Positions 29,843-62,185 of a stretch of 64,000 bases of DNA are shown piece after piece. The DNA is taken from NCBI GenBank assembly GCA_963751705.1, contig CAVVVN010000008.1:131259-195258 (forward strand), given 5' to 3'. Every line of letters begins with the position of its first letter. Position 1 is the first letter of the stretch. Below the pieces are notes generated by a model that was given only the letters and a program-made list of their open reading frames with translations, had not been told where the DNA came from and made no database searches. This stretch comes from an uncultured Bacteroidales bacterium (lineage in GTDB: Bacteria > Bacteroidota > Bacteroidia > Bacteroidales > GCA-2748055). A program made the translations under genes and the position numbers.

Positions 29843-29891
29843 TAAATACTGACTCGATTTTCTGTATGCTCTATTCACGTTTTTCTGGCTT

Positions 29892-39779: not shown

Positions 39780-42701
39780 TTACCACTTCACTTTAATAAA
39801 TTTCGTTTCATAGGGAAGTAATGCCACGCTGGCAACATCATTCGGTGATTCTCCGAGTACGTCAACCTCCTGCGTTTGAAAAGTGTTGATCCCTTTTACT
39901 GCAAAATTTGTTTGTTCCCCATTTAGTTCGCGTAAGTGAAAGATAACGGCATTTTCACCGGTCAGTGGTTTTGAATTAACCAATAATACATTGTTTGGGA
40001 ACTCCTCAAATACAGATTCAAAGTCATTGTTACGCTCAGTCTTTCCTGCAGGGATGACACGGCCTAACAAGGGGATCCTTGCATTCCAGCCAAATTGAGT
40101 TGAAAAACTATTGGATACATCGGCGGAAGAAGTAAAGTAATAGGTCCATTCAAACTCACCACGTTGGTCTACTGCAAAGTTTGTAACCCAGTAATTGTTC
40201 ATGGGCCAGCCAATCACATATGGTTTTTCAGGTTTTGCTGAAGCGTCGTAGCGCCCGGTGTTAATCCCCCCAAACTGCATCAGTGCGGTTTCGGGACTTC
40301 CAAAAACCAATTGTGTATCCTCATTTTTTACCGACACAAAATTCTGTACGGTGTTCCAGTCATTTGATGATCCGGGAATTTGATCTACTCCTGCTTCAAT
40401 CACCCCACCCTGGACTTCAAAATTGATCTTCCCATTTTCAAGTTGAAAAGGGAATGCCGCATAAATTGATTCCGGATCAGTAACGGGCTTTTTAACGACG
40501 TTGTAAACAAAGTCAATCCTTTTTGTTGTGTTATAAAGCCTGATTCCCAGCTTAAAACCCTCATCGCCATAAGCGGCCATTTCCATTTTCCCGGCAAAGT
40601 GCATCTCCTTCCAGATGGGCTGATTTTCAATTCCTTTGAAAGCAAAATTCGCAAGGCCATATCGCTTGTAGTCCTGCATCCACTTACGATCGGGTTCCCT
40701 CCTTTCGACCAGATGGCCTTTGTTTATTTCCGCCCTGTTTCCTAATTGTTCGTAAATAATTTCACCCAGTTTCCAGGGTGCATTTTTATCGACAAGTTCT
40801 TTGTTTAGTTCTTTGTCGATCAAGCTTGTAACAACTCCTTTTTTCGTGTCAACCACAATTTTGTACCACTTATTTTCCAGGGAAGAAAGCTCATTTGTAT
40901 CCATTTTCACTCTCTTTCTGCTGGCATCTTCATTGACTTCTATCCGTAACTGCTTACAGCCAAAAGCGGGAACATCATTCACCCAAATCAGCCAGTATGC
41001 ACTACCTCCGTGAGCTTCGTACACCTGTGCGGGCATTATGTCCCCTTTCTCATCTATGATCTTAAACTCCTTATTTATTGGAAGTTGCTGCTCGTCTATA
41101 TAAACCTTCATGCAGGCACTCCGTTTCCATGCCATGGTGTTAAACACTGCGATACTTGGCACATCAAGTTTAGGAATGTATTCCTGCAACAGGCCCATCG
41201 CCTCTTCATTAACAGAGCGAGCCCTGCGATGAGCTTCCCAGGCATAGGATTCTTTCAGAGCCCTTTGTTCCATAGATCCTTTGCTATAGGGGCGGCTAAT
41301 ACTTGCATGAAATCCAAAGGTATGTTCGTCGTAAAACAGGATGGCATCATTCACAGCAAAGATCCTTTCGTCAATCTCAGCTGGCATCTTTTCCCCAAGT
41401 ACTTTAGCCATGCTCAATGCTTCCTGGGACGCAATAATATCCACATGGGATTCCCTCGATTTACTAACCTCTCTTGCACCGGAACCAAACCCATCGGTCC
41501 ACCAATCGGGCCAGGCAGCACGATAAACTTCTAATTCATCAGCATGTTTTTCTTCAATTTCTTCGAAAAATTCGTATGCTGTTGCGGTTTTTATTTTGGG
41601 CCAATCATATTTCTTGTTCCATTTCATTACCATCTCACAAGCACTTTGTGATGGGGGGGAATTATCAGTTGTATATCCTGAATGCTGAATTGAAGCAATA
41701 TCAAATGGATAGCCTAATTCATATATTTCTGCCAGATATATCAACATTTTCTTTTCAAAATTTTCAAAATCATCTCCATGAATTCCGAAAAAATTACCGT
41801 GCATGTAGTGTTCGGCACGGTGAGCCAACATTCTTTTCCCTGAAGGTGATTCCCACCAAAAAACTGTTGGTTTATCAAAGGGAATTAAAGCCCGGTGCCC
41901 ATGAGTTCCCATATTCAGGTATTTTACGCCCAATGTATTATAGTAATCGCTAAAACACCAGCCAATACCATTCACATCATTTTGCATGGCTACTTTTGCC
42001 TGTAAGCCGTGCTTACGGAACTCTTCAAATGGTTTTAAAGAAGATGCGTACGTTTGTTCATCTGGCATTTCGTCAAAGTTCAGGTACATGGCGGCCAGTT
42101 CTATGCGGCCTTCTTTTACTCTTTGCTTCAGGCGGTCAATCTGTTTTTGAGGCCTTGAGATCAGATATTTTTCCACCGGCCATGTGACTTCACAGGTCCA
42201 TCTGAATTTTGCAGCATCTGGATAATCATCAGTTTGATCACAATAGTCGAGTGCATAATCAATAAACCTTAAATGCTCCGCTAAAATATCACTCTGGGGG
42301 CGTGTATACCCAATATCCGTATGCGTGTGTTGCACAAAATTCACCCGCCATTTCCGGGAAGGCATAGCAGTTGCTGTTATGGAAGTTGTTTTATCATCAA
42401 CAAGCAGTTTTAAGCCTGTTACCTTCCGGCTTTTATTAGCTTTGGCAAAAAAGAACAGGTCGTTATTTCCCTTACGCAATCTTTGTTTGATTATCACGCG
42501 GTTGCCCTGTTTGATAATGGCTTCTGTGTTGTTTTCCCCCTCATACGCGACCTTACACAATATGGGTAACTCCGTCTGATTATTCTTTAGTTCGGCTTGT
42601 AAAACCACAGCTTTTGTTATTGTAATTTTGTCTTCCGGTATTCCGGAAACAAAACCAGAACAGATAATTAAGAGCGTAATAATAATGGTTAGTTTTGTCA
42701 T
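39780..42701 (-). CDS. GH38-type alpha-mannosidase, copy A
   Basis: 973 aa with a signal peptide. Metal-site-like VNFVQHTHTDIGYT. Large multi-domain architecture. Colinear without indels with 59255-62176 (constant offset 19,475 nt). Confidence 0.8.
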   Translation of the reverse strand: MTKLTIIITLLIICSGFVSGIPEDKITITKAVVLQAELKNNQTELPILCKVAYEGENNTEAIIKQGNRVIIKQRLRKGNNDLFFFAKANKSRKVTGLKLLVDDKTTSITATAMPSRKWRVNFVQHTHTDIGYTRPQSDILAEHLRFIDYALDYCDQTDDYPDAAKFRWTCEVTWPVEKYLISRPQKQIDRLKQRVKEGRIELAAMYLNFDEMPDEQTYASSLKPFEEFRKHGLQAKVAMQNDVNGIGWCFSDYYNTLGVKYLNMGTHGHRALIPFDKPTVFWWESPSGKRMLAHRAEHYMHGNFFGIHGDDFENFEKKMLIYLAEIYELGYPFDIASIQHSGYTTDNSPPSQSACEMVMKWNKKYDWPKIKTATAYEFFEEIEEKHADELEVYRAAWPDWWTDGFGSGAREVSKSRESHVDIIASQEALSMAKVLGEKMPAEIDERIFAVNDAILFYDEHTFGFHASISRPYSKGSMEQRALKESYAWEAHRRARSVNEEAMGLLQEYIPKLDVPSIAVFNTMAWKRSACMKVYIDEQQLPINKEFKIIDEKGDIMPAQVYEAHGGSAYWLIWVNDVPAFGCKQLRIEVNEDASRKRVKMDTNELSSLENKWYKIVVDTKKGVVTSLIDKELNKELVDKNAPWKLGEIIYEQLGNRAEINKGHLVERREPDRKWMQDYKRYGLANFAFKGIENQPIWKEMHFAGKMEMAAYGDEGFKLGIRLYNTTKRIDFVYNVVKKPVTDPESIYAAFPFQLENGKINFEVQGGVIEAGVDQIPGSSNDWNTVQNFVSVKNEDTQLVFGSPETALMQFGGINTGRYDASAKPEKPYVIGWPMNNYWVTNFAVDQRGEFEWTYYFTSSADVSNSFSTQFGWNARIPLLGRVIPAGKTERNNDFESVFEEFPNNVLLVNSKPLTGENAVIFHLRELNGEQTNFAVKGINTFQTQEVDVLGESPNDVASVALLPYETKFIKVKW
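40531..41483 (-). repeat. Near-identical core of the GH38 duplication (copy A side)
   Basis: Aligned by eye to 60006-60958. I find only 4 substitutions in 953 bp (40761, 40767, 41015, 41046). 41047-41483 is a 437-bp perfect match. The next 60 nt (41521-41580) show 15 mismatches. Confidence 0.85.
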
Positions 42702-42754
42702 GGTTTTAATTTTATCATGTTAGTTATTGTGTATTCTGCTACCTGAAGATAACC

Positions 42755-45031
42755 CTATTTCCCCCATTCCAAGTTGGGCCTTGGTCCCATCTTCAGAATT
42801 AGCGAGCCACCTTTAATCAGGTCTGAATGATTAAACCTGGGGGAATCCAATTGCTTTCCATTTAAAACAGCCGATTGAATGTATTTATTCTTTGCAGATA
42901 CATCATTGGCTTCGATATAAAATGTCTTGCCATTTCCCAGGTCTATGCTAACCTTATCAAAAAGCGGACTCCCAATATCATAAACCGGACTTCCCGGACA
43001 AACAGGATAAAATCCCATTGCACTGAAGATATACCAGGAAGACAACTCTCCTTCATCCTCATCACCACATATTCCTAAAGGGCCATCATTATACCATATT
43101 TTCATGATATCCCTTACTCTACGTTGCGTCTTCCATGGCTCGCCGGCATAATTGTATAAGTAAGAAATGTGAAAACCAGGTTGGTTTCCATGGCTGTATT
43201 GTCCGATTAATCCTGTCCCGTCAGGAAACTGATTAAGGAATCGATACTTTGATCCTCTGCCGTATTGTGTCTGAAACAGAGCATCCAGCTTTGAAATGAA
43301 CTTCTCCCTTCCTCCCATAAGTGTAATGAGACCTTCAACATCCTGGGGAACATGAAAAGTGTAGGTCCAGGCGTTTGTTTCCGTATAATAGTCGCGTCCG
43401 CCCTGGCCTCCACTCCAAATGGGATCCAACATCTTGTCATTAAAAACCCAATTCCCATCCGCAAGCTTAGGTGCCATAAAACCGATACGGGAATCATACA
43501 GATTCTTATAATTCTGGGCCCGCTTCGTAAAAAGGTCGTAATCCTCCTTTTTATGTAAGGTTTTGGCCATCTGAGCCATGCACCAATCATCGTAACAATG
43601 CTCCAATGTAACCGCTACGGCCTGTCTTTTTTCGAAATTTTTTACCTGCGGAACCCATTCCTCCTGTCCCAAAGCGAGTGCCGGAAAAAATCCCTTTTCA
43701 ATATAAACGCTATCCAATTCGGTCAGAGGACCATTTTGCCAGGGAATCATTGTAGCCTGCAGTGCATTTTTTTTCATCCCTTCATAGGCTTTTTCTACAT
43801 CAAAATCCCTGAAACCCTTAAAATAGGCATCTGTTATGGTCACGATTTCATGTCGCGCAATCATCACCCGCCGTTTTAAGGCAGCATCACCAAGCCACCC
43901 GGTTTGTTCATACATGCGCAGATAAGAGCGAATAATATCATTTTGTCTTTCAGGCTCCAGAAGCAGACCTAAAGGGTACAATGATCTAAAAGATCCCCAA
44001 CTTTCACCCATCTGGTAAAAGTCGTGTCCATCAGTGGAATGAACCTGATTATCGAACCCGCTAAAATATTGTCCATATTCTGAGATATTCGTAGTTTTTC
44101 TTCCCAGAACCCGATACATAGCGGTGTAGAATATGGTGCGTTGGCTCTCTGTTCCTCCCTCGATTTGCACTTTATTCAATGCTGTGTTCCAGATGTCTCT
44201 TCCGATTTTCTTTATACGCTCAAAATCCCAGTCTGGAATCTCCCTTTCTAAATTGAGTTTGGCCTGTTCCTCACTTATGAATGAGAAGCCTACCTTAACC
44301 AGAATCTGTTCCCCCTCATCGGTAGGATATTTGGCATAAAGGCCAATATTTTTTCCTGATATAAGCTTCTCACCCCCTGATACATCTTTGCCTTTCCAGG
44401 TCCCAAAAGTGTTGATAGGTTTGTGGAATCTTGAATAGAAGTATATTTTTCTTGGAACGTCATCACCCCGTGTGGAGATTTGATACCCCTCGATAGCATC
44501 ATTGCTTACTATCTTCACAGCTGCATCCTGGAGCAATCCAATCAGTAGATTGGAATTTTCAGACTGAGGGAAGGTGAAGCGATAGATTCCAGAATGTTGA
44601 GTAACAGTATATTCAGCCTCGATATCGTAATCTTCCAGAAGAACAGAGTAGTAATAAGGAGTGGCTTTCTCAAGATCATGGTCAAAGCCCGAAGCGTTTT
44701 TATCCGGATCAACGGAGATATCTCCTGTTGTGGCCATGATCGTAAAGGCCCGGACTGAAAAATCGTTTGACATTGAATTTGCAGAAAAGGCATAAATCTT
44801 ATCTGCAAGATATGTATCTCTGATTCCGGGAGTCGTTCTCTGGGTCAGTCGAATCATCCCCCGTGGTAACTGAACATCGGGTGTCGTGGCTTTAAGAAGA
44901 TGCCCGATTGAACCTATATATGGATTCACATAATCCACCAGCTCCTGGCCATATAGGAACTTAGGCATGGCAGTGAAAATCAGACAGAAAGCAATTGATA
45001 AAGTCGTAAAATGACAGGATTTTGTTCCCAT
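42755..45031 (-). CDS. GH92 alpha-mannosidase (divergent member)
   Basis: 758 aa. YVNPYIGS, SHGNQPGFHISYLYNYAGEPWKTQRR, and GDEDEGELSSWYI (the usual GQM is replaced by GEL). Confidence 0.85.
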   Translation of the reverse strand: MGTKSCHFTTLSIAFCLIFTAMPKFLYGQELVDYVNPYIGSIGHLLKATTPDVQLPRGMIRLTQRTTPGIRDTYLADKIYAFSANSMSNDFSVRAFTIMATTGDISVDPDKNASGFDHDLEKATPYYYSVLLEDYDIEAEYTVTQHSGIYRFTFPQSENSNLLIGLLQDAAVKIVSNDAIEGYQISTRGDDVPRKIYFYSRFHKPINTFGTWKGKDVSGGEKLISGKNIGLYAKYPTDEGEQILVKVGFSFISEEQAKLNLEREIPDWDFERIKKIGRDIWNTALNKVQIEGGTESQRTIFYTAMYRVLGRKTTNISEYGQYFSGFDNQVHSTDGHDFYQMGESWGSFRSLYPLGLLLEPERQNDIIRSYLRMYEQTGWLGDAALKRRVMIARHEIVTITDAYFKGFRDFDVEKAYEGMKKNALQATMIPWQNGPLTELDSVYIEKGFFPALALGQEEWVPQVKNFEKRQAVAVTLEHCYDDWCMAQMAKTLHKKEDYDLFTKRAQNYKNLYDSRIGFMAPKLADGNWVFNDKMLDPIWSGGQGGRDYYTETNAWTYTFHVPQDVEGLITLMGGREKFISKLDALFQTQYGRGSKYRFLNQFPDGTGLIGQYSHGNQPGFHISYLYNYAGEPWKTQRRVRDIMKIWYNDGPLGICGDEDEGELSSWYIFSAMGFYPVCPGSPVYDIGSPLFDKVSIDLGNGKTFYIEANDVSAKNKYIQSAVLNGKQLDSPRFNHSDLIKGGSLILKMGPRPNLEWGK

Positions 45032-45085
45032 TTTTGAAAGATTTTTCAGTTTATTAACATTGATTGATTCATCTATTGCATTCGT

Positions 45086-46294
45086 TCAAGAATTGTACTT
45101 GTTTTTAAGGTATATATAGCATTTTTGAAATTCATGGATAAGACCTGCATCTTCTTTCGGGTCCATTCCACAAACCTCCTGAAGAATATAGGAAACTCCC
45201 TGCGCTTTGTATGCTTCAAAAAGGCGGTCCGGTTCAGACATTTCTCCATGCTCACCTGCAGCCCTAAAGAAAAATGCGCTGGCCATAGCTTCCAAAATAA
45301 GACCATAGGGTTTATCCTGGGTTTTGGCCAAGCGGATAATCCCCATAAAGCGATCGTCTGCTCCTAATTTACGAATACGATCCTGTCCCACACGGAATAT
45401 GGTATCCTGAAGTGCCCTGTTTTTAAAACGAAACAAAAGATTATCGATATGTGTATCCAGGTCCCTTGCACTAAAATCGTCAGAATAGATCCTTTGCAGC
45501 ACACTTGCAGCTTCTTGCATCACTTTCCTGACAGCCTTGTAAATAGCTTCATCTTCTAATACCTCATAGATGTATGTTGCACCGGGATGATGCAATGATC
45601 CTATATAAGCTGCCGTAGCATGCCCCAGGTTATGAATAAATGCCTTACGATCTACCCAGGCCTTAATGTTTTCTTTTGGGGCCAGCCCTGTCACCTGTGG
45701 AATACTCCCTTTAAATCCTCTGGCATCAAGGATCAATGTATTATAGCTTTCAGCATAAACTGCCAGGGGATCAAGGTCCAGTTCCGTTTGTTTCATAATG
45801 GGAACCATTTTTCCAATACTGGTTTCTACAAGGCCCACCAGTTTGTCCAATGAATAATCTGAAGGCAGATAGCCTATTAACTCTTCATGAAAAAATTGGG
45901 CAGCCGAACGTAAATTCTCAGCAATAATTATATCTAAGGGCTTGTTCTTGTCTTCCTTGTAGCGCAATAACAATCCTTCAGCGATGAGCGGAATAATTTT
46001 TTTCAGTGCGTTTTTCCCTGCAGAGACCGCAATAATCGAAGACCTGGATACCTCCCTTATTACAGATCCATGATCAAGCCCGGAAATGGCCCTTACTCCT
46101 GAAACCTTAATAGTTTTCTCCTCATCTCCTTTTATCAGCACCCTATATTCCCCATGCTTGTTGAGCAGGTCGATAAGGTTCTGATCAATATCTGAGAATA
46201 CAACTTCATACCCGGAAACCCCAAACAGTTGCCCAATGAATGAACGTCCAATCTTTCCTGCACCGAAGATTAATATCGATTTAGGACTATTCAT
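45086..46294 (-). CDS. Mannitol-1-phosphate 5-dehydrogenase-like (mannitol dehydrogenase family) oxidoreductase
   Basis: 402 aa. The N-terminus ILIFGAGKIGRSFIGQLFGVSGYEVVFSDIDQNLIDLLN closely parallels the MtlD Rossmann start (HFGAGNIGRGFIG..). Its start overlaps the PfkB gene stop by 8 nt. Confidence 0.65.
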   Translation of the reverse strand: MNSPKSILIFGAGKIGRSFIGQLFGVSGYEVVFSDIDQNLIDLLNKHGEYRVLIKGDEEKTIKVSGVRAISGLDHGSVIREVSRSSIIAVSAGKNALKKIIPLIAEGLLLRYKEDKNKPLDIIIAENLRSAAQFFHEELIGYLPSDYSLDKLVGLVETSIGKMVPIMKQTELDLDPLAVYAESYNTLILDARGFKGSIPQVTGLAPKENIKAWVDRKAFIHNLGHATAAYIGSLHHPGATYIYEVLEDEAIYKAVRKVMQEAASVLQRIYSDDFSARDLDTHIDNLLFRFKNRALQDTIFRVGQDRIRKLGADDRFMGIIRLAKTQDKPYGLILEAMASAFFFRAAGEHGEMSEPDRLFEAYKAQGVSYILQEVCGMDPKEDAGLIHEFQKCYIYLKNKYNS

Positions 46295-47468: not shown

Positions 47469-47470
47469 TT

Positions 47471-48145
47471 TTATAAGTAATTTAGGTAATCTGATATAAG
47501 CAGGTGCAGGGGAGTTTCATCCTCCTCTATGGTCGGGAACCTTCCAACTTGCTCAAAAAAGCGATTGTCAAGGCTGTCATCATTTACTGCACTTACTTCA
47601 CCTACAAGCACTTTCCCTTTTCCAGGCTCCCCATAGAACCGGTGGTAGAGGCCTTGTTCGAGACAAATACTTTCTCCAGGTGTCAGGGTGATTTTATCAC
47701 CAGCATTCAGGCTTCTGATGATACCATCGGTTTTTACTGTAAAAGATTGATCCGAAAGCCTTTCATTTTCATCCGAATCATACAGCTCGATGATCAGGTT
47801 TCCACCGCCACGGTTGATGATATCTTCCATTTTGCTCCAGTGAAAATGCATGGGGGTCTCCTGCATTTCTTCAACGATCATGGCTTTTTCAGCATAAGGT
47901 TTTTTGTCTAATTTCATGTTCCCGTTACGCAGTGTAAAAAGAATGAGTCCGCGATTATAAAATTCTCCGCTGCCAAAATCAGTCAGATCCCAGCCTAACA
48001 TGTTGTCAACAATTTCAGAACAGGTTTCATTCTTTCCTCTCCAGTCCTCCGGATTCCAATAAGCAAAGGGGGGAAGGTGAAAATTCATTTGTCCGAAAAA
48101 GTCTTTCGATTGCTTAATAAGCAGGTTAATTTCACTTCTTTTCAT
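47471..48145 (-). CDS. D-lyxose/D-mannose ketol-isomerase family cupin
   Basis: 224 aa. MKRSEINLLIKQSKDFF..FHLPPFAYWNPEDW and PMHFHWSKMEDIINRGGGNL, as in the YdaE/Z5688-type lyxose-mannose isomerases. Confidence 0.75.
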   Translation of the reverse strand: MKRSEINLLIKQSKDFFGQMNFHLPPFAYWNPEDWRGKNETCSEIVDNMLGWDLTDFGSGEFYNRGLILFTLRNGNMKLDKKPYAEKAMIVEEMQETPMHFHWSKMEDIINRGGGNLIIELYDSDENERLSDQSFTVKTDGIIRSLNAGDKITLTPGESICLEQGLYHRFYGEPGKGKVLVGEVSAVNDDSLDNRFFEQVGRFPTIEEDETPLHLLISDYLNYL

Positions 48146-48168
48146 ATCAGTCTAATTTTATCTCGTCT

Positions 48169-49980: not shown

Positions 49981-50038
49981 GTCCAGATTCTTTGCTTATT
50001 TCGATGAAAAAAAGATGAGTTATGTCGTATTTGAATTC

Positions 50039-52678: not shown

Positions 52679-52701
52679 ACCCGTTTCCATTCTATGTAAG
52701 T

Positions 52702-55700
52702 TCAAATTATGACTTGCATATAGGTGATTGTTCCAATTTTATCAGAGTCAGGAACCTGCCATACAACTTTTTTGTCTTTGTTTAGCTCAAAAAGAGGTGT
52801 GCCTTTGCCTTTTGCATCCCAACCAAGCCAGTTGCAAACAATGGTGTTGCCATTATCAAGCCTGTTAATTCCAAGAATAAATTGCAGTTTCATCGCCGGG
52901 ACATCTTTTTCAGTTAATTCCCATACGATATTTCCTGCTGTATCATATTCAAGAATTCCTTTCTGCCACGAAACCAAGGTATGTCCATTTTTCAGGCGTT
53001 GCCCCATAAAGACATGCCCCGGGGCATTAAAGTCACGGATAATTTTTCCTTCAGCATCATATTCCCGGGCAAGATTATCTCCCAGATGTCCTACAAGATA
53101 GGTTCCCTGAGGTGTTTTCCGTGCATGCCGGAGTGCCCAGTGCCTGTCTTCATTTTTGCATGTAAGTGGAATGGTCTTTACAATCTCTCCCTGTGGATTT
53201 ATCTCACAAATGCGCAGAGGAACTGATTCTGCAATCAGGGTATTTCCATCACTCAGGCGTTGACAGCTATTGACCTCTCCTTCTGACTTATAGTAAAATA
53301 CCTGCATATGACCGGGTGTTACCTCAATGACCTCTTTGCCCGTTGCAAACAGGACATTCCCGCTGGGGAGTTTTGTCACATCCGTACAGGATCTTGCATC
53401 ATGCTCCCAGATAACACGCCCCTGCCGGTCAAATTCCCGAACCTTCTGAGCTCCATAGTCAGAACATATAAAACTACGTGATGACTGCAGCTGTGTAATA
53501 GAAGGAGAATTGGCAAGGCAGCTTTCCGGATATGGATTCTCGTACAAATGCGGTTTTTCTGCTCCTGGCGGGTAATACCACAAAGACTCCCAGTACCGCT
53601 GATCAGTCTTGTAAAAGTCAATTGGATCCTTAGCCAGGTCGAATGAATCAGGAAGTATCCCATACTTTTTCATCTCACGAACATATTCCCGACGTGGCTT
53701 AAAGCCCTCCATGTCGAATCTTTTTCGTTGATCAAGCAACGAACCTGCCGCCCGGATGCCTTGAAGGATTAATTGGTACTCCGGATCATTCTTGCTCGTA
53801 AATATCGCTTTTTGAGTACTGCTTTTTTCCAATTTACACTTCCCGTATCCTCCAGCATCAGCAGAAAGTGGAGCCAGCAGGATCAATGATTTCTCCGGGT
53901 AACTCAGGTTATAGACAATATCCCGCATAAAATTTGTCTTCCATGTTTTATCACCTACCACCCAGGCTTGTATATGAACGTAGGAAGGATGGGTTGCCAG
54001 GCGGGTATCTCCCTGATGGCAGGATGCACATTTTTTTTCCAGGACTGCTTTCATTTCCTGCACTTCGGGTAGGTCCAGATCACTGTTATCGGTAATCAGG
54101 TGTCCTTCATTCAGTCCAATTGATCCTGTTCCCAGGGCTGCGTATGTACCTGGATAAGTAGCTCCGGTATTTATCCAGTAACGAAGTAACTTAATTTCCT
54201 TCTCAGAAAGTTTCGCATCATGGTGGCTTCCATCGAGCTTGTCCATCAGCGGACTGGCAGCATCTCCTATATCACGGGGAGGATAATTACTGACTGCCAG
54301 ATTTCTTCCCATGACATACTCTCCCCTGGCCTTGAGATTGTAATAACTATGAGAATAAATGGGACCATGATCTCCGGTCAGCAATATACCTCCCATATAA
54401 TTTTCAGGCCTGTGGCATTTGACACAATGTTTGTCAAGCACCGGCTGTATATCCCTGGGAAAGTCAATAATATCCGGTATATCTCTAACGGGTTCAGGGA
54501 TGGAGGGCTTTCGCCGGGCGGCAAGCGGTCTGCTATTTTTCTGTGGAACAGGAGCAGTGGTCCTTTTTTCATGGCATCCGACACAACCTGTTACTTCTCC
54601 CGGCACAACCGATAAAAAACTCTGCATACGCTTTACACTGCTATCGTCTTTATCAAGTGCAACAAAAAAGAAAGGACGGTTTGCAGGTAGTTCCATAATC
54701 GCTGAGCCATCAGCTTCTACAGGAACTGTACCCAGAATACGTTCCAGGGTAAAGCTGCCGCCCCAGGTCAGGGGCTCCATGCTCCCGGTAAACTGACAGG
54801 GTTTTGGCAATGCTTCCAGGATCAATAGTTTTTTTATTTCTCCCTGTTTAATCCCTTCCATGTTTCTACCGGTATACACATCATTTACAAAGAGTGTTCC
54901 GGTTCCTTTCGATAGATCCACCCTGGAAGGGATAACCGGTTCCCGCTTACGCCCGGTTAAGGGACGGGGTTCCTGTACATTCGTATGACCGAATTCCGGT
55001 GGCAGAGAAAAAAATGGAAGTTCATTTCCTTCTGAATCAATAAAAAACATTTTATTGCCACTTGCTGCAATATACAAGTCTTCAGACAAGGGGTACGGAT
55101 CCCGGAAATCACTTCCCTGACTAAGATATTTCAATTGATTAAGATCATCCGGGCCATTGGAAATATTCGCCGTGGCTACTCGCCCGCTATGATCTGTCTG
55201 TCCATGCCCGGGAGAGCAGCTCAGGACAATACTGGAGCTGCCGGGAATCGGTTTGGCATCGATAAAAACATTACCCGGGTTTAAATTGCCATAATAAACC
55301 ATCTGGTTGGTTCCATCGGGCTTCATGGTCCATAAATGATGATAATGCACCTGGCTCCTGTCAATATACTCCCAGCGGGTATAGAGAATTTGTCCGTCGG
55401 GTAGCACCCACGGGGTGTTGTCATGTTCGATATTTGCAGATAACTGGCGAATATTTTTCCCATCCCCATCACACCGGTAAATAGTTGCAACGGGTACCTG
55501 CCAGCAATTCACCCATCTGTTACAGCGACTGGATACAAATATTATCCCACCGTCAGGCAGGTAGATAGGTTCAATATCGGCATAGGGGCCAAAGGTTAAC
55601 TGCTTTAAACCGGTTCCATCAACATTAATTTCGTAAATATGAAAATGCTCGCTCCCGGCTTTTCTCCAGGAAAACAGGATTTTTTGACCATCGTAATGTA

Positions 55701-56433
55701 ACTGGGGATCGCGAACCGTTCCTTCAGGATCATTCACCAAGGTGCTTATATTACCTGTGCTCATATTGTATTTGCATAAACGCCCCTGCTTCCCATAGTT
55801 TTTGTATGATGGATCCAGGCAGTAGTAGGCGAAATTTGCATACCAATGCCCCCATACGTGGTCCTTGCAATCTTCCCGAACAGCAAACACTATCTCCTCA
55901 AAGTTCAACTGCTTTTTAATCGCATTCAATTTCGCTTTGCGCCTTTTTTCAGTCTCTCTCTTTCGGAGCTCAACGATTCTTGCAGGTTCAGGATCGGGAA
56001 ATGTAATATCCCATATGGAATAACACAGGGCCGGATCTTTATTTATAGATAGGATGCGAAAGAAACGCCCCTGAAATTCCAGGTGGTTTAAGGTGGTTAA
56101 ACCACCTTTCCCATTCTTTTCATGGTATACCGTATTCCAATCTTCACCGTTTCCGGAAGATTGAATACAAAATTCCTTTGCAGAGGTATTCTCCCAGTGA
56201 ATGATAATATTCTCAAACGATACTGATTTGTGAAAGTCATAAAGCAACCAGGCAGTCTGCTCATTTTTTTTACTGACCCACCGGCTGGTTTCATCTCCAT
56301 CAAAGGCGTATTCAGCCAGATAAGTCGTACCTAATTTACCCGAAGAACGACTTATTGTATCCTGAGCCTGCAACACAGGGTTGAACAGAGATAATACCAG
56401 CACAACTGGAAAAGAAATCGATTTGATTTTCAT
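52702..56433 (-). CDS. Giant secreted multidomain protein: discoidin domain + TolB/HzsA-like beta-propeller + three CxxCH haem-c motifs (PSCyt1-like) + C-terminal beta-propeller
   Basis: ATG at 56433 (MKIKSISFPVVLVLSLFNPVLQAQ; the track starts at TTG 56454). Discoidin YAFDGDETSRWVS..AWLLYDF. Propeller DPQLHYDGQKILFSW / IEPIYLPDGGIIFVS / NTPWVLPDGQILYTR. CVGCH 54571-54585, CVKCH 54412-54426 (IQPVLDKHCVKCH..GGILL, PSCyt1-like), and CASCH 54016-54030. The C-terminal repeats run D.QGRVIWE, NPQGEIVKT, DAEGKIIRDF, DTAGNIVWEL and KDKKVVWQV. Confidence 0.8.
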   Translation of the reverse strand: MKIKSISFPVVLVLSLFNPVLQAQDTISRSSGKLGTTYLAEYAFDGDETSRWVSKKNEQTAWLLYDFHKSVSFENIIIHWENTSAKEFCIQSSGNGEDWNTVYHEKNGKGGLTTLNHLEFQGRFFRILSINKDPALCYSIWDITFPDPEPARIVELRKRETEKRRKAKLNAIKKQLNFEEIVFAVREDCKDHVWGHWYANFAYYCLDPSYKNYGKQGRLCKYNMSTGNISTLVNDPEGTVRDPQLHYDGQKILFSWRKAGSEHFHIYEINVDGTGLKQLTFGPYADIEPIYLPDGGIIFVSSRCNRWVNCWQVPVATIYRCDGDGKNIRQLSANIEHDNTPWVLPDGQILYTRWEYIDRSQVHYHHLWTMKPDGTNQMVYYGNLNPGNVFIDAKPIPGSSSIVLSCSPGHGQTDHSGRVATANISNGPDDLNQLKYLSQGSDFRDPYPLSEDLYIAASGNKMFFIDSEGNELPFFSLPPEFGHTNVQEPRPLTGRKREPVIPSRVDLSKGTGTLFVNDVYTGRNMEGIKQGEIKKLLILEALPKPCQFTGSMEPLTWGGSFTLERILGTVPVEADGSAIMELPANRPFFFVALDKDDSSVKRMQSFLSVVPGEVTGCVGCHEKRTTAPVPQKNSRPLAARRKPSIPEPVRDIPDIIDFPRDIQPVLDKHCVKCHRPENYMGGILLTGDHGPIYSHSYYNLKARGEYVMGRNLAVSNYPPRDIGDAASPLMDKLDGSHHDAKLSEKEIKLLRYWINTGATYPGTYAALGTGSIGLNEGHLITDNSDLDLPEVQEMKAVLEKKCASCHQGDTRLATHPSYVHIQAWVVGDKTWKTNFMRDIVYNLSYPEKSLILLAPLSADAGGYGKCKLEKSSTQKAIFTSKNDPEYQLILQGIRAAGSLLDQRKRFDMEGFKPRREYVREMKKYGILPDSFDLAKDPIDFYKTDQRYWESLWYYPPGAEKPHLYENPYPESCLANSPSITQLQSSRSFICSDYGAQKVREFDRQGRVIWEHDARSCTDVTKLPSGNVLFATGKEVIEVTPGHMQVFYYKSEGEVNSCQRLSDGNTLIAESVPLRICEINPQGEIVKTIPLTCKNEDRHWALRHARKTPQGTYLVGHLGDNLAREYDAEGKIIRDFNAPGHVFMGQRLKNGHTLVSWQKGILEYDTAGNIVWELTEKDVPAMKLQFILGINRLDNGNTIVCNWLGWDAKGKGTPLFELNKDKKVVWQVPDSDKIGTITYMQVII

Positions 56434-56450
56434 CTCGCAAATTTGCATTA

Positions 56451-57746
56451 TCAATTTTCCAAAAATCTTCTGTTTACTTTATTGTACCACTCTACGTTTT
56501 TCCAGTTCTCCCAATAAGGGTGGCTGTAATTCCATGGGGTAGATCCCCATAGTTGATAATCAGACGAAAGTTGCATGCTTTCTTCACACCAATCATATAA
56601 CCACTTCCAGGTCAGGTCTTTATGATCCATGTGCCACCAGGGGCCCCAGGCTTCAGTGGTCGTAAGTGGGGCACCAATTTCTTCCGACCACTCTTTTGCC
56701 CAGGCCAATCGGTTGTGCATGTCTTTCATCAGCATTGGGCGCGATGAAAGCATTGTTTTTTCCAGCCTGTCCATATAGTCTTTATGGTCGTGAATGCCCC
56801 GGTCTTTTTTTATCCCGCCAAAACCGGAACGTGAATTAAATCGTTCACTTTGGGAGAGCCAAAAGTGCAGTTCCAGTACATCAAAAGATTTAATATTCAT
56901 TGCCCTGATTTCTTTCCAATAGGAGGTAAATGAGAAGGTAAATCGTAATTCGGGATATTTGTGTTGAAAGTGGGTTAAGGTGCTGTTTAAGTAATTGCGT
57001 ACAAATTCCATTTGCCGGGGATTCCAGGCCAGCCTGTCAAAGTTCGCCTGGACACTTCCTGCCGCTTCCATGGCAGCTAATGCCGAAGCGGATGGTTCCA
57101 TGTTTATTTGACCCAGGTGGTTTAGCTCCTCTGCTACCGGGCTGAAATATGGAAATTCCTGGTCGAAATCAACATAAACAACATGGCTTAAAAGATCTTC
57201 CTTTTTCAATAGGTCCAATACTTTTTCCCAGGCTTTCCATATCTCTTCAGGATGGGTATAATCTTCCTTGAGGTTTGGGAATTCAAGTACACCTCCAAGT
57301 GCCCAGGAAGAAAGTATAACAGAGATGTTTTTCTCCTTGGCTGTTTTCATAAAATCCAATAATTCAGTAATCACGGCATGTTTGCGATCCTTATCAGTGG
57401 CACCCCAATTTTCCAGTGGAGCAGCGGCAATGGTCACTTCCTGATCCTTATGTTCCATTTTCCCAATTACCAATGGAAAAGCATCGATGCGTACCGTGTT
57501 AAACCCGCGCTCGAGGAGTTCGTCAAGAACTTTATTGTAGTCTTCAAAAAAACCACCTTTATAATGTTGATTTAACCAGGAGAAGTCCCACATGGCAATG
57601 GTCAGTCGGGATGGTGTAAGTTCTGAGCGCATGTCGTAATTTCCAGACTTTTCATTTGCTCTGGTTTCAGGCTGTTTGGACGTACAGCTAAACAGGACAA
57701 TTCCGATGAGTAAAAAAACACTCATTACACATGTGTATTTTTTCAT
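56451..57746 (-). CDS. Lipoprotein, cellulase-like (beta/alpha)8 barrel of unassigned family
   Basis: ATG at 57746 (MKKYTCVMSVFLLIGIVLFSCTS; the track starts at TTG 57767). GFNTVRIDAFP, ISVILSSWALGG, candidate acid/base VYVDFDQEFPYF, and candidate nucleophile PLTTTEAWGPWW. Confidence 0.55.
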   Translation of the reverse strand: MKKYTCVMSVFLLIGIVLFSCTSKQPETRANEKSGNYDMRSELTPSRLTIAMWDFSWLNQHYKGGFFEDYNKVLDELLERGFNTVRIDAFPLVIGKMEHKDQEVTIAAAPLENWGATDKDRKHAVITELLDFMKTAKEKNISVILSSWALGGVLEFPNLKEDYTHPEEIWKAWEKVLDLLKKEDLLSHVVYVDFDQEFPYFSPVAEELNHLGQINMEPSASALAAMEAAGSVQANFDRLAWNPRQMEFVRNYLNSTLTHFQHKYPELRFTFSFTSYWKEIRAMNIKSFDVLELHFWLSQSERFNSRSGFGGIKKDRGIHDHKDYMDRLEKTMLSSRPMLMKDMHNRLAWAKEWSEEIGAPLTTTEAWGPWWHMDHKDLTWKWLYDWCEESMQLSSDYQLWGSTPWNYSHPYWENWKNVEWYNKVNRRFLEN

Positions 57747-57810
57747 ATTGTATAAGTTATTTTGCAATTACTGAGCCCTCACCGGTCAGTGGTTTTGATA
57801 GTACCCAAAT

Positions 57811-59235
57811 TTATAATTCAAGTTCCGGATAGTATCCTGAAATTAGTTCCCTGTCTATTTTGTCAAGGTCTTTCAGCCGTACAGGTTTGTCCTGTGGCCG
57901 CAATCCCTTCTGGTTGATCCGGTTCATCAGGCTCCAATCTTTCACCGGGTACTCCGGGCTTGGATCGGCAGGTTCCCGGGCCGAGAGATCGTAACGGGTA
58001 AAATCAATTACTTTCTCCGGGCTGTTTTTATGCCAGTTCCGAAGAAGGGCCAGCCGGAATTCTTTATTCATAAACCAGCGGATCTCTTCATCACCCCATG
58101 AATTACCTATTCCCAATCCTTTTTCTTCAAAACGGTAATTCCATTTTTCATTATCCGGATAATGCTGCCTCCATATCTCCCCATACTCTCCAAACGAGAT
58201 AAACTGAACATCCGGCCAACGTTCTTTGGTTCCACTTACCCATTTTTCGAGAGCCCTTAGAACGAGCTGATCGTGCCAGTTTTTCCGTTCAGGTGCTTTC
58301 ACAAGAGAAGCCTCCCATATATTGGGAATCCAGCCAAACCCATTTAATTCAAAGCCACGGTCGAAATGCAACGATTGGGTATGCATAACCGAAATATGCC
58401 CGATATCCAGTCCCCATTCTATATAGTTTTCTATGGGCCCCACTCCGCGTCGGCTCGAAGCCCCGTTATACAGACTGGAACTGCTGGTAACACCTCCACT
58501 GATCTTTGCGCATAAGAAATCGATGCTCCAACCGTCTAGATTTACACAGTCGATAAAATCCCTGTTATTCTGGGCTGGCTTACAAAAATGTTCTTTTGAA
58601 GGATAGTAAGGATACGACGGAGATCCATCCGCACCACCACCATCAACATCATGCTGGCTCCAGATCACCCCGTGGGCAACATGGACATCCTCTTCCTCCG
58701 AAAGGTAGCGCATATTTTCAGCAGCCAGATATCCTCCCATAATGGATTTTGGCCTGTATCCGTTTCCTACAAAATCAGAAATTATCTGAAGCGCTTCACT
58801 TATTTCTTTATTTACTCGTTGCCGGGGAAGGTACATGGCCGGAAAATATCCCGGCATATAGGATATTTCATCGCCGTATTTTTTCTGGCACTCTACAACA
58901 TATTTCCTGATATCCACATAATTTTTTCTTTTATCTTCCAGTGCATTCAGCGTAAATCCCCAGGTTAAGCGGCCTTCTGGATTATTCTTTGAAAAAGCTT
59001 CACGCATATCACGCACCACTTCCAGAGTGTGTATTTCATATTCCTCCCGCGGATGAAGTTTTACATCTCTGGACACTTCCCATGGGGAAGTCCGAATCAT
59101 TATACATAAGGTTACAAAACGCTTACCTGTTAACTGATCTACTAAGGAATTATTCATTGCACTCAAGACATGAGGAGCTGCCATTGCCCCTACGCCTGAA
59201 AGAGCTGAATCTTTTAAAAAAGTACGTCTATTCAT
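57811..59235 (-). CDS. Tat-exported protein of unknown function
   Basis: 474 aa. Twin-arginine signal MNRRTFLKDSALSGVGAMAAPHVLSA. No family recognised. Confidence 0.6.
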   Translation of the reverse strand: MNRRTFLKDSALSGVGAMAAPHVLSAMNNSLVDQLTGKRFVTLCIMIRTSPWEVSRDVKLHPREEYEIHTLEVVRDMREAFSKNNPEGRLTWGFTLNALEDKRKNYVDIRKYVVECQKKYGDEISYMPGYFPAMYLPRQRVNKEISEALQIISDFVGNGYRPKSIMGGYLAAENMRYLSEEEDVHVAHGVIWSQHDVDGGGADGSPSYPYYPSKEHFCKPAQNNRDFIDCVNLDGWSIDFLCAKISGGVTSSSSLYNGASSRRGVGPIENYIEWGLDIGHISVMHTQSLHFDRGFELNGFGWIPNIWEASLVKAPERKNWHDQLVLRALEKWVSGTKERWPDVQFISFGEYGEIWRQHYPDNEKWNYRFEEKGLGIGNSWGDEEIRWFMNKEFRLALLRNWHKNSPEKVIDFTRYDLSAREPADPSPEYPVKDWSLMNRINQKGLRPQDKPVRLKDLDKIDRELISGYYPELEL

Positions 59236-59254
59236 TATATTCTTAATCGGTCCT

Positions 59255-62185
59255 TTACCAGGTAACTTTTATGAATTTTGTTTCATGGGGAAGTAATGCC
59301 ACGCTGGCAACATCTATCGCTGATTCTCCGAGTACGTCAACCTCCTGCGTTTGAAAAGTGTTGATCCCTTTAACTGCAAAATTTGTTTTTTTGCCATTTA
59401 ACTCACGCATATGAAAGATAACGGCATTTTCACCGGTCAGTGGTTTTGAATTAACCAATAATACATTGTTTGGGAACTCCTCAAATACAGATTCAAAGTC
59501 GGTGTTACGCTCAGTCTTTCCTGCAGGGATGACACGGCCTAACAACGGAATCCTTGCATTCCAGCCAAATTGAGTTGAAAAACTATTGGATACATCGGCG
59601 GAAGAAGTGAAGTAATAGGTCCATTCAAACTCACCACGTTGGTCTACTGCAAAGTTTGTAACCCAGTAATTGTTCATGGGCCAGCCAATCACATATGGTT
59701 TTTCAGGTTTTGCTGAAGCGTCGTAGCGCCCGGTGTTAATCCCCCCAAACTGCATCAATGCGGTTTCGGGACTTCCAATAACCAATTGTGTATCCTCATT
59801 TTTTACCGACACAAAATTCTGTACGGTGTTCCAGTCATTTGATGATCCGGGAATTTGATCTACTCCTGCTTCTACCAGGCCTCCCTGTACATCAAAGTTT
59901 ATTTTCCCTTCGTCAAGCAGGAATGGAAATGCCACATAGATAGCTTCAGGATCGGTCACCGGTTTCTTCACCACATTATAGACAAAATCAATCCTTTTTG
60001 TTGTATTATAAAGCCTGATTCCCAGCTTAAAACCCTCATCGCCATAAGCGGCCATTTCCATTTTCCCGGCAAAGTGCATCTCCTTCCAGATGGGCTGATT
60101 TTCAATTCCTTTGAAAGCAAAATTCGCAAGGCCATATCGCTTGTAGTCCTGCATCCACTTACGATCGGGTTCCCTCCTTTCGACCAGATGGCCTTTGTTT
60201 ATTTCCGCCCTGTTTCCTAATTGTTCGTAAATAATCTCACCTAGTTTCCAGGGTGCATTTTTATCGACAAGTTCTTTGTTTAGTTCTTTGTCGATCAAGC
60301 TTGTAACAACTCCTTTTTTCGTGTCAACCACAATTTTGTACCACTTATTTTCCAGGGAAGAAAGCTCATTTGTATCCATTTTCACTCTCTTTCTGCTGGC
60401 ATCTTCATTGACTTCTATCCGTAACTGCTTACAGCCAAAAGCGGGAACATCATTCACCCAAATCAGCCAGTATGCACTACCTCCGTGAGGTTCGTACACC
60501 TGTGCGGGCATTATGTCCCCGTTCTCATCTATGATCTTAAACTCCTTATTTATTGGAAGTTGCTGCTCGTCTATATAAACCTTCATGCAGGCACTCCGTT
60601 TCCATGCCATGGTGTTAAACACTGCGATACTTGGCACATCAAGTTTAGGAATGTATTCCTGCAACAGGCCCATCGCCTCTTCATTAACAGAGCGAGCCCT
60701 GCGATGAGCTTCCCAGGCATAGGATTCTTTCAGAGCCCTTTGTTCCATAGATCCTTTGCTATAGGGGCGGCTAATACTTGCATGAAATCCAAAGGTATGT
60801 TCGTCGTAAAACAGGATGGCATCATTCACAGCAAAGATCCTTTCGTCAATCTCAGCTGGCATCTTTTCCCCAAGTACTTTAGCCATGCTCAATGCTTCCT
60901 GGGACGCAATAATATCCACATGGGATTCCCTCGATTTACTAACCTCTCTTGCACCGGAGCCAAAACCATCGGTCCACCAATCGGGCCAGGCAGCGCGGTA
61001 AACTTCAAGTTCGCCTGCATGCTTCTCCTCAATCTCCTCAAAAAATTCGCAGGCTGTGGCAGTTTTAAGCTTCGGCCAATCGTATTTGTTGTTCCACTTC
61101 CGGATCATTTCGCTGCCCCTCAACGAGGGAGGTGAGTTATCCGTATGATACCCTGAATACTGAATAGAGGTAATATCAAATGGATAGCCTGTATCATACA
61201 ATTCTGAAAGATAGATCAACATCTTCTTTTCAAAATTTTCAAAATTATCTGTGTGAATTCCGAAGAAATTACCCTGGTGGTAGTGTTCTGCACGGAAAGC
61301 AAGCATTCTGTTCCCTGAGGGAGATTCCCACCAAAAGGCAGTAGGCCTGTCAAAGGGGATCAGGGCTCTATGGCCATGTGTACCCATATTTAAATATTTT
61401 ACCCCCAGTGTACTATAGAAGTCATTGAAACACCAGCCAATGCCGTTGACATCATTTTGCATGGCCACTTTGGCCTGTAAGCCGTGCTTACGGAACATTT
61501 CAAAAGGTTTGAGTGAGGCAGCATAAGCTTGCTCATCAGGCATCTCATCAAAGTTCAGGTACATGGCAGCCAGTTCTATGCGGCCTTCTTTTACTCTTTG
61601 CTTCAGGCGGTCAATTTGTTTTTGAGGCCTTGAGATCAGATATTTTTCCACCGGCCAGGTTACTTCACAGGTCCATCTGAATTTTGCAGCATCTGGATAA
61701 TCATCGGTTTGGTCACAATAGTCAAGCGCATAATCGATCATCCGGAGATGGTCGGCTAACACATCGCTTTGAGGACGGGTATATCCTATATCGGTATGTA
61801 CGTGTTGCACAAAATTCACCCGCCATTTCCGGGAAGGCATAGCAGTTGCTGTTATGGAAGTTGTTTTATCATCAACAAGCAGTTTTAAGCGTGTTACCTC
61901 CCCGCTTTTATTAGCTTTGGCAAAAAAGAACAGGTCGTTATTTCCCTTACGCAGTCTTTGTTTGATTATCACGTGGTTGCCCTGTTTGATAATGGCTTCT
62001 GTGCTGTTTTCCCCCTCATACGCAAGCTTACACAACATGGGTACCTCCGTCTGATTATTCTTTAGCTCGGCTTGTAATACAATCGCTTTGGTCACAGTAG
62101 TTTTATCTGCCGGCATTCCGGAAACAAAACCGGAACAGATAAAAAAGAGCGTAATAATAAATGTGAATTTTGTCATGGTTCTCAT
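59255..62185 (-). CDS. GH38-type alpha-mannosidase, copy B
   Basis: 976 aa (an alternative ATG at 62176 aligns exactly with the copy A start). About 93% amino-acid identity to copy A overall. VNFVQHVHTDIGYT. Confidence 0.8.
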   Translation of the reverse strand: MRTMTKFTFIITLFFICSGFVSGMPADKTTVTKAIVLQAELKNNQTEVPMLCKLAYEGENSTEAIIKQGNHVIIKQRLRKGNNDLFFFAKANKSGEVTRLKLLVDDKTTSITATAMPSRKWRVNFVQHVHTDIGYTRPQSDVLADHLRMIDYALDYCDQTDDYPDAAKFRWTCEVTWPVEKYLISRPQKQIDRLKQRVKEGRIELAAMYLNFDEMPDEQAYAASLKPFEMFRKHGLQAKVAMQNDVNGIGWCFNDFYSTLGVKYLNMGTHGHRALIPFDRPTAFWWESPSGNRMLAFRAEHYHQGNFFGIHTDNFENFEKKMLIYLSELYDTGYPFDITSIQYSGYHTDNSPPSLRGSEMIRKWNNKYDWPKLKTATACEFFEEIEEKHAGELEVYRAAWPDWWTDGFGSGAREVSKSRESHVDIIASQEALSMAKVLGEKMPAEIDERIFAVNDAILFYDEHTFGFHASISRPYSKGSMEQRALKESYAWEAHRRARSVNEEAMGLLQEYIPKLDVPSIAVFNTMAWKRSACMKVYIDEQQLPINKEFKIIDENGDIMPAQVYEPHGGSAYWLIWVNDVPAFGCKQLRIEVNEDASRKRVKMDTNELSSLENKWYKIVVDTKKGVVTSLIDKELNKELVDKNAPWKLGEIIYEQLGNRAEINKGHLVERREPDRKWMQDYKRYGLANFAFKGIENQPIWKEMHFAGKMEMAAYGDEGFKLGIRLYNTTKRIDFVYNVVKKPVTDPEAIYVAFPFLLDEGKINFDVQGGLVEAGVDQIPGSSNDWNTVQNFVSVKNEDTQLVIGSPETALMQFGGINTGRYDASAKPEKPYVIGWPMNNYWVTNFAVDQRGEFEWTYYFTSSADVSNSFSTQFGWNARIPLLGRVIPAGKTERNTDFESVFEEFPNNVLLVNSKPLTGENAVIFHMRELNGKKTNFAVKGINTFQTQEVDVLGESAIDVASVALLPHETKFIKVTW
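60006..60958 (-). repeat. Near-identical core of the GH38 duplication (copy B side)
   Basis: Counterpart of 40531-41483 at offset +19,475. The antisense track ORFs 40801-41013 and 60276-60488 translate identically. Confidence 0.85.

Follow-up and report, generated by a model that had tools for sequence, protein, structure and literature searches.

How can two copies of one enzyme gene, lying 16.5 kb apart in direct orientation on a single bacterial chromosome, be almost indistinguishable along some of their length and strongly divergent along the rest, and what does this pattern say about the genes enclosed between them? The question arises from a stretch of 64,000 nucleotides from an uncultured Bacteroidales bacterium (contig CAVVVN010000008.1), hereafter the window, which carries two genes of glycoside hydrolase family 38 (GH38), here called GH38-A and GH38-B, or simply A and B. 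The interval between them (42702-59254; 16,553 bp, nine genes) had been described in an initial annotation as a cassette that might be deleted or amplified by recombination between the two copies, or that had been inserted into an older GH38 neighbourhood. The analysis reported here leads us to a different explanation, which we regard as probable: A and B are ancient paralogues that undergo gene conversion inside a native, co-directional alpha-mannan locus, and the interval that they enclose is neither mobile nor inserted.

By domain content and active-site motif, both copies are assigned to the GH38 alpha-mannosidases. The N- and C-terminal domains of the family (PF01074 and PF07748) score above the gathering score in each of them, and the His-x-His-x-Asp metal-binding motif reads QHTHTD in GH38-A and QHVHTD in GH38-B, while no solved structure matches GH38-A at E <= 1e-5, which holds for this GH38 clade. 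The two genes are 91.1% identical at the nucleotide level over 2931 alignment columns, of which only nine, at the 5′ end, contain gaps, and they differ at 253 mismatch sites, with identity per 100 nucleotides spanning 58% to 100% (Table 1). A homogenised core of 953 bp holds just four mismatches (at 40761, 40767, 41015, and 41046), whereas identity drops to 68-89% in the catalytic block (41484-42340) and in a short C-terminal block (40398-40530). The longest exact run of A/B identity measures 437 bp, followed by runs of 247 and 230 bp; when the 253 mismatches were shuffled, the longest identical run had a mean of 67 and never exceeded 159 in 20,000 trials, and the mosaic identity thus far exceeds chance. 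Homology between the copies stops exactly at the stop codons (39780 and 59255) and about 27 nucleotides upstream of the ATG of A, and no other high-identity repeat is present within the 64-kb window. These are not the features of a recent segmental duplication, as divergence is uneven along the gene and homology does not continue past the gene borders.

The age of the two copies was assessed from a codon alignment with the orthologue in L001, an uncultured Sunxiuqinia metagenome-assembled genome (Prolixibacteraceae, Marinilabiliales) that is the closest GTDB species representative (GH38 83% protein identity), and from a nine-sequence alignment to which L082 (sequence R), from a sister species about 91% identical in nucleotide sequence, and L086 (sequence J), a JGI metagenome contig, were added. 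Across the catalytic block, the identity of A is 92-98% with L082 and 82-92% with L001, but just 73-89% with B, while B is 91-96% identical to L086. The order is opposite in the core, where A and B are 98-100% identical to each other, compared with 85-99% to L082 and 67-83% to L001. According to Nei-Gojobori estimates made for each block, the synonymous divergence (dS) between A and B amounts to 1.20 in the catalytic block (nonsynonymous divergence, dN, 0.073; dN/dS 0.06), 0.011 in the core (where dN/dS is not informative), 1.38 in the short C-terminal divergent block (dN/dS 0.05), and 0.10 in the near-identical tract after it, shifting about 100-fold between neighbouring blocks. Since dN/dS (omega) is 0.05-0.06 in the divergent blocks, both copies are under purifying selection. 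Neighbour-joining trees of fifteen proteins, built segment by segment, are incongruent in the same manner. In the catalytic-domain tree, a B-type clade (B of the window, B of the conspecific strain 4, P0128, and P0002) stands as sister group to the whole set of A-type sequences, which comes from six related species, whereas A and B are sisters in the core tree. From the per-segment trees and the dS values together, it follows that the paralogy predates the radiation of these species. As part of the probable explanation given above, A and B would therefore be old paralogues rather than the outcome of a recent duplication, their identical tracts having been made later by gene conversion.

Three conspecific assemblies, all metagenome-derived, are available for comparison: the 1.09-Mb contig to which the window belongs (GH38 proteins P0124 and P0121), strain 2 (ERZ25039603 contig_59742; L081 and L085), which is 99.94% identical to the window over 22.9 kb, and strain 4 (GCA_942492075.1, contig CALODE010000002.1; L083 and L084). 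Both further assemblies carry the gene order of the window, namely SusC-SusD-FG-GAP-B-DUF3863-Cellulase-like-haem protein-GH38-like-propeller/di-haem-isomerase-kinase-dehydrogenase-GH92-A-GH92 and onward. The boundaries of the identical tracts agree in the three assemblies, with zero fixed A/B differences over about 900 bp of the core. At the assembly level, no deletion or amplification variant occurs in any of the three. Likewise, no chimera of the kind that a deletion or duplication junction would create is found in the cluster of proteins with at least 90% identity, drawn from about 15 billion proteins, whose members are the conspecific GH38 copies and one sister-species gene only. A scan of metagenome contigs with GH38-B recovered no junction contigs, nearly all relatives being at most 55% identical, and gave two partial close matches, L153 and L165.

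Differences between strains fall in the repeated genes more often than their length would predict. Compared with the window, 10 of the 15 differences around gene A of strain 2 lie in GH38, which makes up 12.7% of the compared span (P = 1.8e-6); the corresponding figures are 8 of 31 for gene A of strain 4 (again 12.7% of the span; P = 0.04) and 24 of 59 for gene B of strain 4 (19.9%; P = 2e-4). At nine of the 10 sites where A of strain 2 differs from the window, the B allele is present, and a contiguous run of four diagnostic sites with the B allele lies at window positions 40027-40134, where A of the window keeps the state of L082 and L001. Conversely, strain-4 B shows five A alleles in a contiguous run near its 3′ end, in a patch corresponding to A 39812-39897, and has further A alleles on the margin of the core, and at one core site both window copies have G and both strain-4 copies have A. 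Such patterns are what two-way short-tract conversion would give, and conversion may be ongoing, although this hinges on the consensus sequences of long-read metagenome assemblies, one of which is noisy in the repeat. In strain 2, gene B (L085 10001-12960) contains 13 single-base indels, all within its A-like part, and is split by gene calling into pieces of 431 and 159 amino acids (aa), and in strain 4 (L084, near 10001) one extra base cuts the call of gene B to 861 aa; errors of long-read polishing within the repeat seem to account for these indels better than pseudogene formation. Apart from the GH38 pair, a second hotspot of substitution is seen in the GH38-like/DUF5054 gene (minus strand), which has no repeat partner in the window and accounts for 12 of the 31 substitutions between strain 4 and the window over 22.9 kb.

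Related genomes show how the neighbourhood of GH38 is built elsewhere. In L082, a sigma70 gene is followed by isomerase-kinase-dehydrogenase-GH92g-GH38-Cellulase-like and then by SusC/SusD, so that the isomerase-kinase-dehydrogenase-GH92 set, with 91% nucleotide identity to the window, stands directly upstream of a single GH38. L086 reads GH92b-GH38-Cellulase-like-haem protein, its Cellulase-like and haem genes being 90-94% identical to those of the window; L001 reads GH92b-haem protein-GH38, L169 reads GH38-haem protein-propeller/di-haem protein, and the distant L090 has the isomerase-kinase-dehydrogenase set, then a GH38-like gene, and then GH38. The DUF3863/DUF3864 gene found between GH38-B and the Cellulase-like gene is confined, among close relatives, to the species of the window; in L082 and L086 the Cellulase-like gene comes directly after GH38 without DUF3863, and L030, L035, and L106 have DUF3863/DUF3864 homologues (about 45% identity) upstream of their GH38 genes.

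The GH38 genes of these relatives are themselves mosaics when scored at the 253 A/B-diagnostic sites. L082 combines an A-type catalytic block (130 A-type and 17 B-type sites) with a B-type C-terminal block (6 and 27, respectively) and is then followed by the Cellulase-like gene, as on the side of B. In L086, the catalytic block is B-type (13 A-type and 131 B-type sites), and the C-terminal block is half B-type and half A-type. L153 carries FG-GAP and then a GH38 gene that is B-like at its 5′ end (23 B-type and 7 A-type sites) and A-type in its catalytic block (73 A-type and 18 B-type sites); its contig breaks off within this gene, a usual effect of repeats on short-read assembly. Among sister species, a given catalytic type is thus not tied to a given flanking context. 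The polarity of L082 (5′ A and 3′ B, with GH92g before and the Cellulase-like gene after) is suggestive of unequal crossing-over between A and B or of a circle junction; L082 belongs to another species and has no downstream haem genes. Recombination at GH38 has probably reshuffled the locus over evolutionary time. The idea that L082 is a second locus of the same genome was rejected, as two NCBI conspecific genomes give only two cluster members each and the DNA identity is about 91%.

Additional observations were made around GH38 in two other relatives. In L168 (5493-7681), from the species with P0131, in which GH38 shares 85% identity with A, two transposase genes (DDE_Tnp_1 and IS110 family) and a hybrid two-component regulator come after the GH38 gene, and these transposases may be a further sign that the surroundings of GH38 are prone to rearrangement. 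L001 contains a direct repeat of about 123 nucleotides (6484-6606 and 9953-10075) shared by the haem-protein gene and the downstream GH38, with its first 60 nucleotides 97% identical, which spans leader, start codon (ATG), and signal peptide and may have arisen as the scar of a deletion or by conversion on a small scale. The haem protein of L001 is without the F5/8-type-C domain found in the window and in L086. Loss of a first GH38, the Cellulase-like gene, and the F5/8-C region from L001 by deletion was considered and then weakened, since the haem homologue of L169 also lacks the domain, whose absence may be ancestral.

The interval itself blends into its surroundings. Its GC content is 0.415-0.466, compared with 0.384-0.480 outside, strand skew is equal, and neither changes at the borders. 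No transposase, integrase, or other mobility function is encoded by the nine interval genes according to Pfam and NCBIfam; the sole integrase of the window is at 1568-2779, and the repeats are intact GH38 genes rather than insertion sequence (IS) elements. A presence/absence difference with clean borders, which together with an IS element or integrase and a compositional shift would mark a mobile or inserted cassette, is also missing. Instead, every gene from FG-GAP down to about 10 kb lies on the minus strand, with intergenic gaps of -8 to 58 nucleotides from FG-GAP through GH92e, forming a single co-directional array that includes eight GH92 genes, two GH38 genes, the GH38-like gene, three sulfatases, ROK and MFS genes, and the isomerase-kinase-dehydrogenase set. 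A SusC-like/SusD-like pair is located beyond the right end of the window, just upstream of FG-GAP and GH38-B, as seen in L084 and L085 of the conspecific strains. This predicted gene content is that of a single, very large polysaccharide utilisation locus of the alpha-mannan type, carried by a Bacteroidota host that resembles Prolixibacteraceae.

Taken as a mechanism, gene conversion between A and B would proceed as follows. Strand invasion would begin in the long identical runs, by analogy with established RecA-dependent recombination, and resolution without crossover would copy one GH38 onto the other, a non-reciprocal conversion resulting in concerted evolution. Conversion of this kind would have brought some 1.3 kb of the 2.9-kb gene to near identity, while the catalytic block and the C-terminal block of about 130 bp have stayed far apart. 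Tracts would stop where mismatch density reaches 20-27%, or selection would remove convertants of the catalytic block; selection for keeping two catalytic variants and a barrier to strand exchange posed by 20-27% mismatch are both possible. A crossover would delete the nine genes, leaving a 5′ B/3′ A chimera, or duplicate them. Such products are probably rare, and deletions are probably disadvantageous because the mannose catabolism genes would go with them. The interval is then most simply described as the meeting point of two native GH38-anchored modules arranged head to tail, one consisting of B followed by the Cellulase-like and haem proteins, and the other of isomerase-kinase-dehydrogenase-GH92 followed by A.

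Several considerations weigh against this explanation or limit its reach. Conspecific sampling comprises three genomes, represented by consensus assemblies rather than reads. Because the indels of strain-2 B are confined to its A-like part, polishing seems to be unreliable in the repeat, and some of the strain-specific patches could be consensus cross-talk. Selective protection of the catalytic block may be read from the low omega and the persistence of both types across species; conversion may have run in either direction, and the ancestral layout may have been B...A or a single copy as in L082. A more far-reaching proposal, which we put forward tentatively and hold to be possible rather than probable, is that the A- and B-type catalytic variants have been long-lived side by side in at least five sister species, with the remainder of the gene serving as a portable region of homology that swaps types between flanks. 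The combinations that would illustrate such swapping are FG-GAP with B (the window), FG-GAP with A (L153), GH92g-A/B chimera-Cellulase-like (L082), and GH92b-B-Cellulase-like (L086). If this were true, paralogous carbohydrate-active enzyme genes would act as hinges for reshuffling polysaccharide utilisation loci, and the gene order of the 16.5-kb interval would be permutable around GH38.

Other histories could in principle yield the same mosaic. GH38 might have been duplicated recently, with the core as the remnant of that event and the divergent blocks of B imported from the B-type gene of another species, a scenario that we consider unlikely. It draws on the resemblance between the catalytic block of B and L086 (91-96%), which is like that of the neighbouring Cellulase-like and haem genes (90-94%) and, taken by identity alone, would be compatible with an interspecies origin, and on the mosaic GH38 genes of sister species, which show that segments move. 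However, an ancient B-type lineage would still be required, so that the old paralogy would merely be shifted to another genome; the downstream context of B (the Cellulase-like gene and the haem protein) is the same in L086, which fits vertical descent; a fresh segmental duplication would not be expected to have its homology confined to the gene; and the two-way patches that differ between strains suggest that paralogues within one genome exchange sequence anyway. More improbable still is an artefact of assembly, in which the near-identity would come from collapsing or cross-polishing of more divergent paralogues, and this we rate lowest of all. The indel noise of strain-2 B is indeed limited to the repeat region, but the tract boundaries coincide in three independent assemblies, which come from at least two projects (contigs of 1.09 Mb, 310 kb, and 142 kb), both window genes are intact open reading frames (ORFs), and in every assembly each copy has its own divergent blocks without ambiguity.

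Between these two in our ranking, and also quite improbable, stands the view of the initial annotation that the 16.5-kb block is a discrete cassette, either inserted or actively lost and amplified by RecA crossovers. Parts of its reasoning have stood up well. The near-perfect repeat of about 1 kb on which it relied corresponds to 953 bp with 4 mismatches and is an adequate substrate for homologous recombination, exact runs of 437, 247, and 230 bp being well over the minimum for RecA-dependent exchange. Its reading of the mosaic as a footprint of recombination agrees with the dS change of about 100-fold, the incongruent segment trees, and the strain-differing patches. L082 moreover has a single GH38, 5′ A and 3′ B, between both edges of the cassette, as would be expected of a crossover or circle junction. 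Nevertheless, the full arrangement is present in three of three conspecific assemblies and the cluster with at least 90% identity holds no junction chimera, which leaves the supposed deletion and amplification without an example, and L082 is from a different species (about 91% nucleotide identity) without the downstream haem genes, rather than a simple excision product. Insertion into a GH38 neighbourhood is at odds with the lack of a GC shift and of mobility genes, with the tight array, and with the recurrence of the interval genes as conserved native partners of GH38 in other species. In place of loci with a single GH38 and no cassette, for which the annotation advised looking, sister species carry the interval genes in other orders, not an empty site. 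The result that the annotation itself had named as contrary to its proposal, a fixed arrangement together with separate origins of the two copies, largely describes what was found, in that the arrangement is fixed in all available conspecific genomes and the catalytic tree rejects a recent duplication.

The coordinates of the repeat pair, the interval genes, and the upstream FG-GAP gene are collected in Table 1. The direct orientation of the GH38 copies and the limits of the enclosed interval were given exactly by the initial annotation, and its gene inventory was correct according to Pfam, NCBIfam, and sequence motifs. Its further statement, that all the unusual redox and unknown genes are contained in the interval, is true of the CxxCH proteins, which in the window occur only there, but not of two ORFs without a Pfam match, which lie outside on the minus strand (28073-29878, 601 aa, and 23782-25575, 597 aa). 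No other neighbour of this GH38 clade is as conserved as the 601-aa protein, homologues of which are found within a few kb upstream of GH38 in 28 of the fetched loci. The lengths of 1250, 888, and 438 aa obtained for three of the interval proteins are those of maximal ORFs, the conspecific gene calls being 1243, 879, and 424 aa. The four genes upstream of A (42755-48145) may together provide cytoplasmic mannose catabolism and an exo-mannosidase. Some 37 kb away from the repeats, the locus probably comes to an end at the left side of the window, where TPR proteins, a CHAT-domain protein, and a fragment of a histidine kinase (4863-10031) are encoded beyond the sulfatases along with a tyrosine-recombinase/integrase-like gene (1568-2779, minus strand).

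Table 1. Positions of the GH38 repeat pair, its sequence blocks, and neighbouring genes in the window
Feature	Coordinates	Strand	Remarks
GH38-A	39780-42701	-	973 aa; 3′ (downstream) direct repeat; A-type catalytic domain; PF01074 + PF07748; identical to P0124
GH38-B	59255-62185	-	976 aa; 5′ (upstream) direct repeat; B-type catalytic domain; Pfam GH38 N/C domains; identical to P0121
Homogenised core of A	40531-41483	-	aa ~421-720; read as a gene-conversion tract; partner is B 60006-60958
Homogenised core of B	60006-60958	-	Partner is A 40531-41483
Second near-identical tract of A	40075-40397	-	Versus B 59550-59872; 3 mismatches in 323 bp
Divergent block of A	41484-42340	-	GH38 N-terminal catalytic domain, aa ~120-420, PF01074; A/B 73-95% nucleotide identity per 100 nucleotides
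Divergent catalytic block of B (B-type)	60959-61815	-	Partner is A 41484-42340
Short C-terminal divergent block of A	40398-40530	-	aa ~721-765; versus B 59873-60005; both sequence types found across species
5′ leader of A still homologous to the B copy	42702-42728	-	Flank alignment, BLAST extent
GH92 (GH92g)	42755-45031	-	Pfam/NCBIfam; module upstream of A
Mannitol-dehydrogenase-family (MtlD-like) protein	45086-46294	-	Module upstream of A
PfkB kinase	46287-47468	-	Module upstream of A
D-lyxose/mannose isomerase (LyxI)	47471-48145	-	Module upstream of A
Beta-propeller + di-haem protein	48169-49980	-	603 aa, 2 CxxCH; homologue of hydrazine synthase beta + gamma
GH38-like/DUF5054 protein	50039-52705	-	~21% identical to L001 GH38 (tblastn); outside the repeat
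1250-aa haem protein	52702-56454	-	F5/8-type-C, propeller, HZS-alpha middle, tri-haem (3 CxxCH), and Mal s 1-like regions
Cellulase-like (PF12876) lipoprotein	56451-57767	-	Lipobox LFSC; module downstream of B
DUF3863/3864 protein	57811-59235	-	Tat motif RRTFLK; module downstream of B
FG-GAP/ASPIC gene, 3′ part	62198-63940	-	Directly upstream of GH38-B; 1070 aa in conspecifics, SusC + SusD before

Two of the interval products are of interest beyond the repeat pair. The 603-aa protein aligns end to end with subunits of hydrazine synthase (HZS), first the beta subunit (PDB 5c2v_B, E 4.7e-29) and then the gamma subunit (5c2v_C, E 2.3e-25), and is matched by the NCBIfam beta-gamma fusion model NF052342 with an E value of 5.7e-48, far below the curated cutoff. 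The 1250-aa protein, in turn, matches HZS alpha (5c2v_A, E 1.2e-14), the Pfam HZS-alpha middle domain, and the NCBIfam model NF052339. From these matches, the two c-type haem proteins are identified as distant homologues of the alpha and beta-gamma subunits of the hydrazine synthase of anammox bacteria. Their genes are adjacent and come right after GH38 in L169 (3296-8499), and the pair co-occurs near GH38 in the distant L039 (13760-15529 and 21932-22564), while homologues of the 1250-aa protein adjoin GH38 in L001 (6522-9870), in L086 (5551-6660), and in L169; the association of the haem pair with this GH38 clade thus recurs in several species. A literature search found no mention of hydrazine-synthase homologues in polysaccharide utilisation loci, and we regard the haem proteins as a more interesting lead than the gene conversion itself.

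The conversion nonetheless has practical and biological consequences. Stretches in which paralogues are nearly identical break short-read contigs and confuse polishing, as at the end of L153 and in the indels of strain-2 B, and trees built from whole paralogous genes would mislead at this locus. From the persistence of two catalytic lineages, A and B are predicted to have distinct specificities for substrate or linkage. For the fast reordering of polysaccharide utilisation loci between species, recombination at shared enzyme genes would also provide a concrete mechanism.

Several known systems are comparable with the one described here. Deletion and tandem amplification between direct repeats are exemplified by the duplications flanked by rrn operons or IS elements in Salmonella and Escherichia coli. 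As in those cases, a multi-gene interval is enclosed by direct repeats that are perfectly identical over several hundred bp; unlike them, the repeats here are functional genes, and no deletion or amplification product is seen in the conspecific data. With respect to gene content, the yeast-mannan loci of Bacteroides thetaiotaomicron are representative alpha-mannan utilisation loci of Bacteroidota, and marine flavobacterial loci with GH92 and sulfatase genes offer another example (PMC6298971). The present locus shares with these systems SusC/SusD, many GH92 genes, GH38, and sulfatases on one strand, and is distinguished from them by the isomerase-kinase-dehydrogenase set and the two hydrazine-synthase-like haem proteins. 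The closest parallels to the repeat pair itself are tufA/tufB of Salmonella and E. coli and the rRNA operons, which are likewise dispersed direct-repeat paralogues within one chromosome that are subject to RecA-dependent conversion. Concerted evolution of dispersed bacterial paralogues has been described for rrn operons (PMC8022953) and in a survey of cases (PMC6053082), and the antigen families of Mycobacterium tuberculosis provide a further example (PMC13061034), whereas our full-text literature search found no paper on gene conversion in polysaccharide utilisation loci. The tuf and rrn systems resemble A and B in that part of each gene is more similar to its paralogue than to its orthologue, boundaries are sharp, tracts are short and, in the case of A and B, may vary between strains, and gene order is kept. 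They differ in that domains are respected here, the catalytic domain forming two deep lineages while the remainder is homogenised, and in that tuf and rrn are dosage-sensitive core genes, whereas A and B encode secreted carbohydrate-active enzymes of one utilisation locus. The process is textbook gene conversion between direct repeats, made somewhat unusual by the sparing of the catalytic domain and by its setting between enzyme genes of the same locus.

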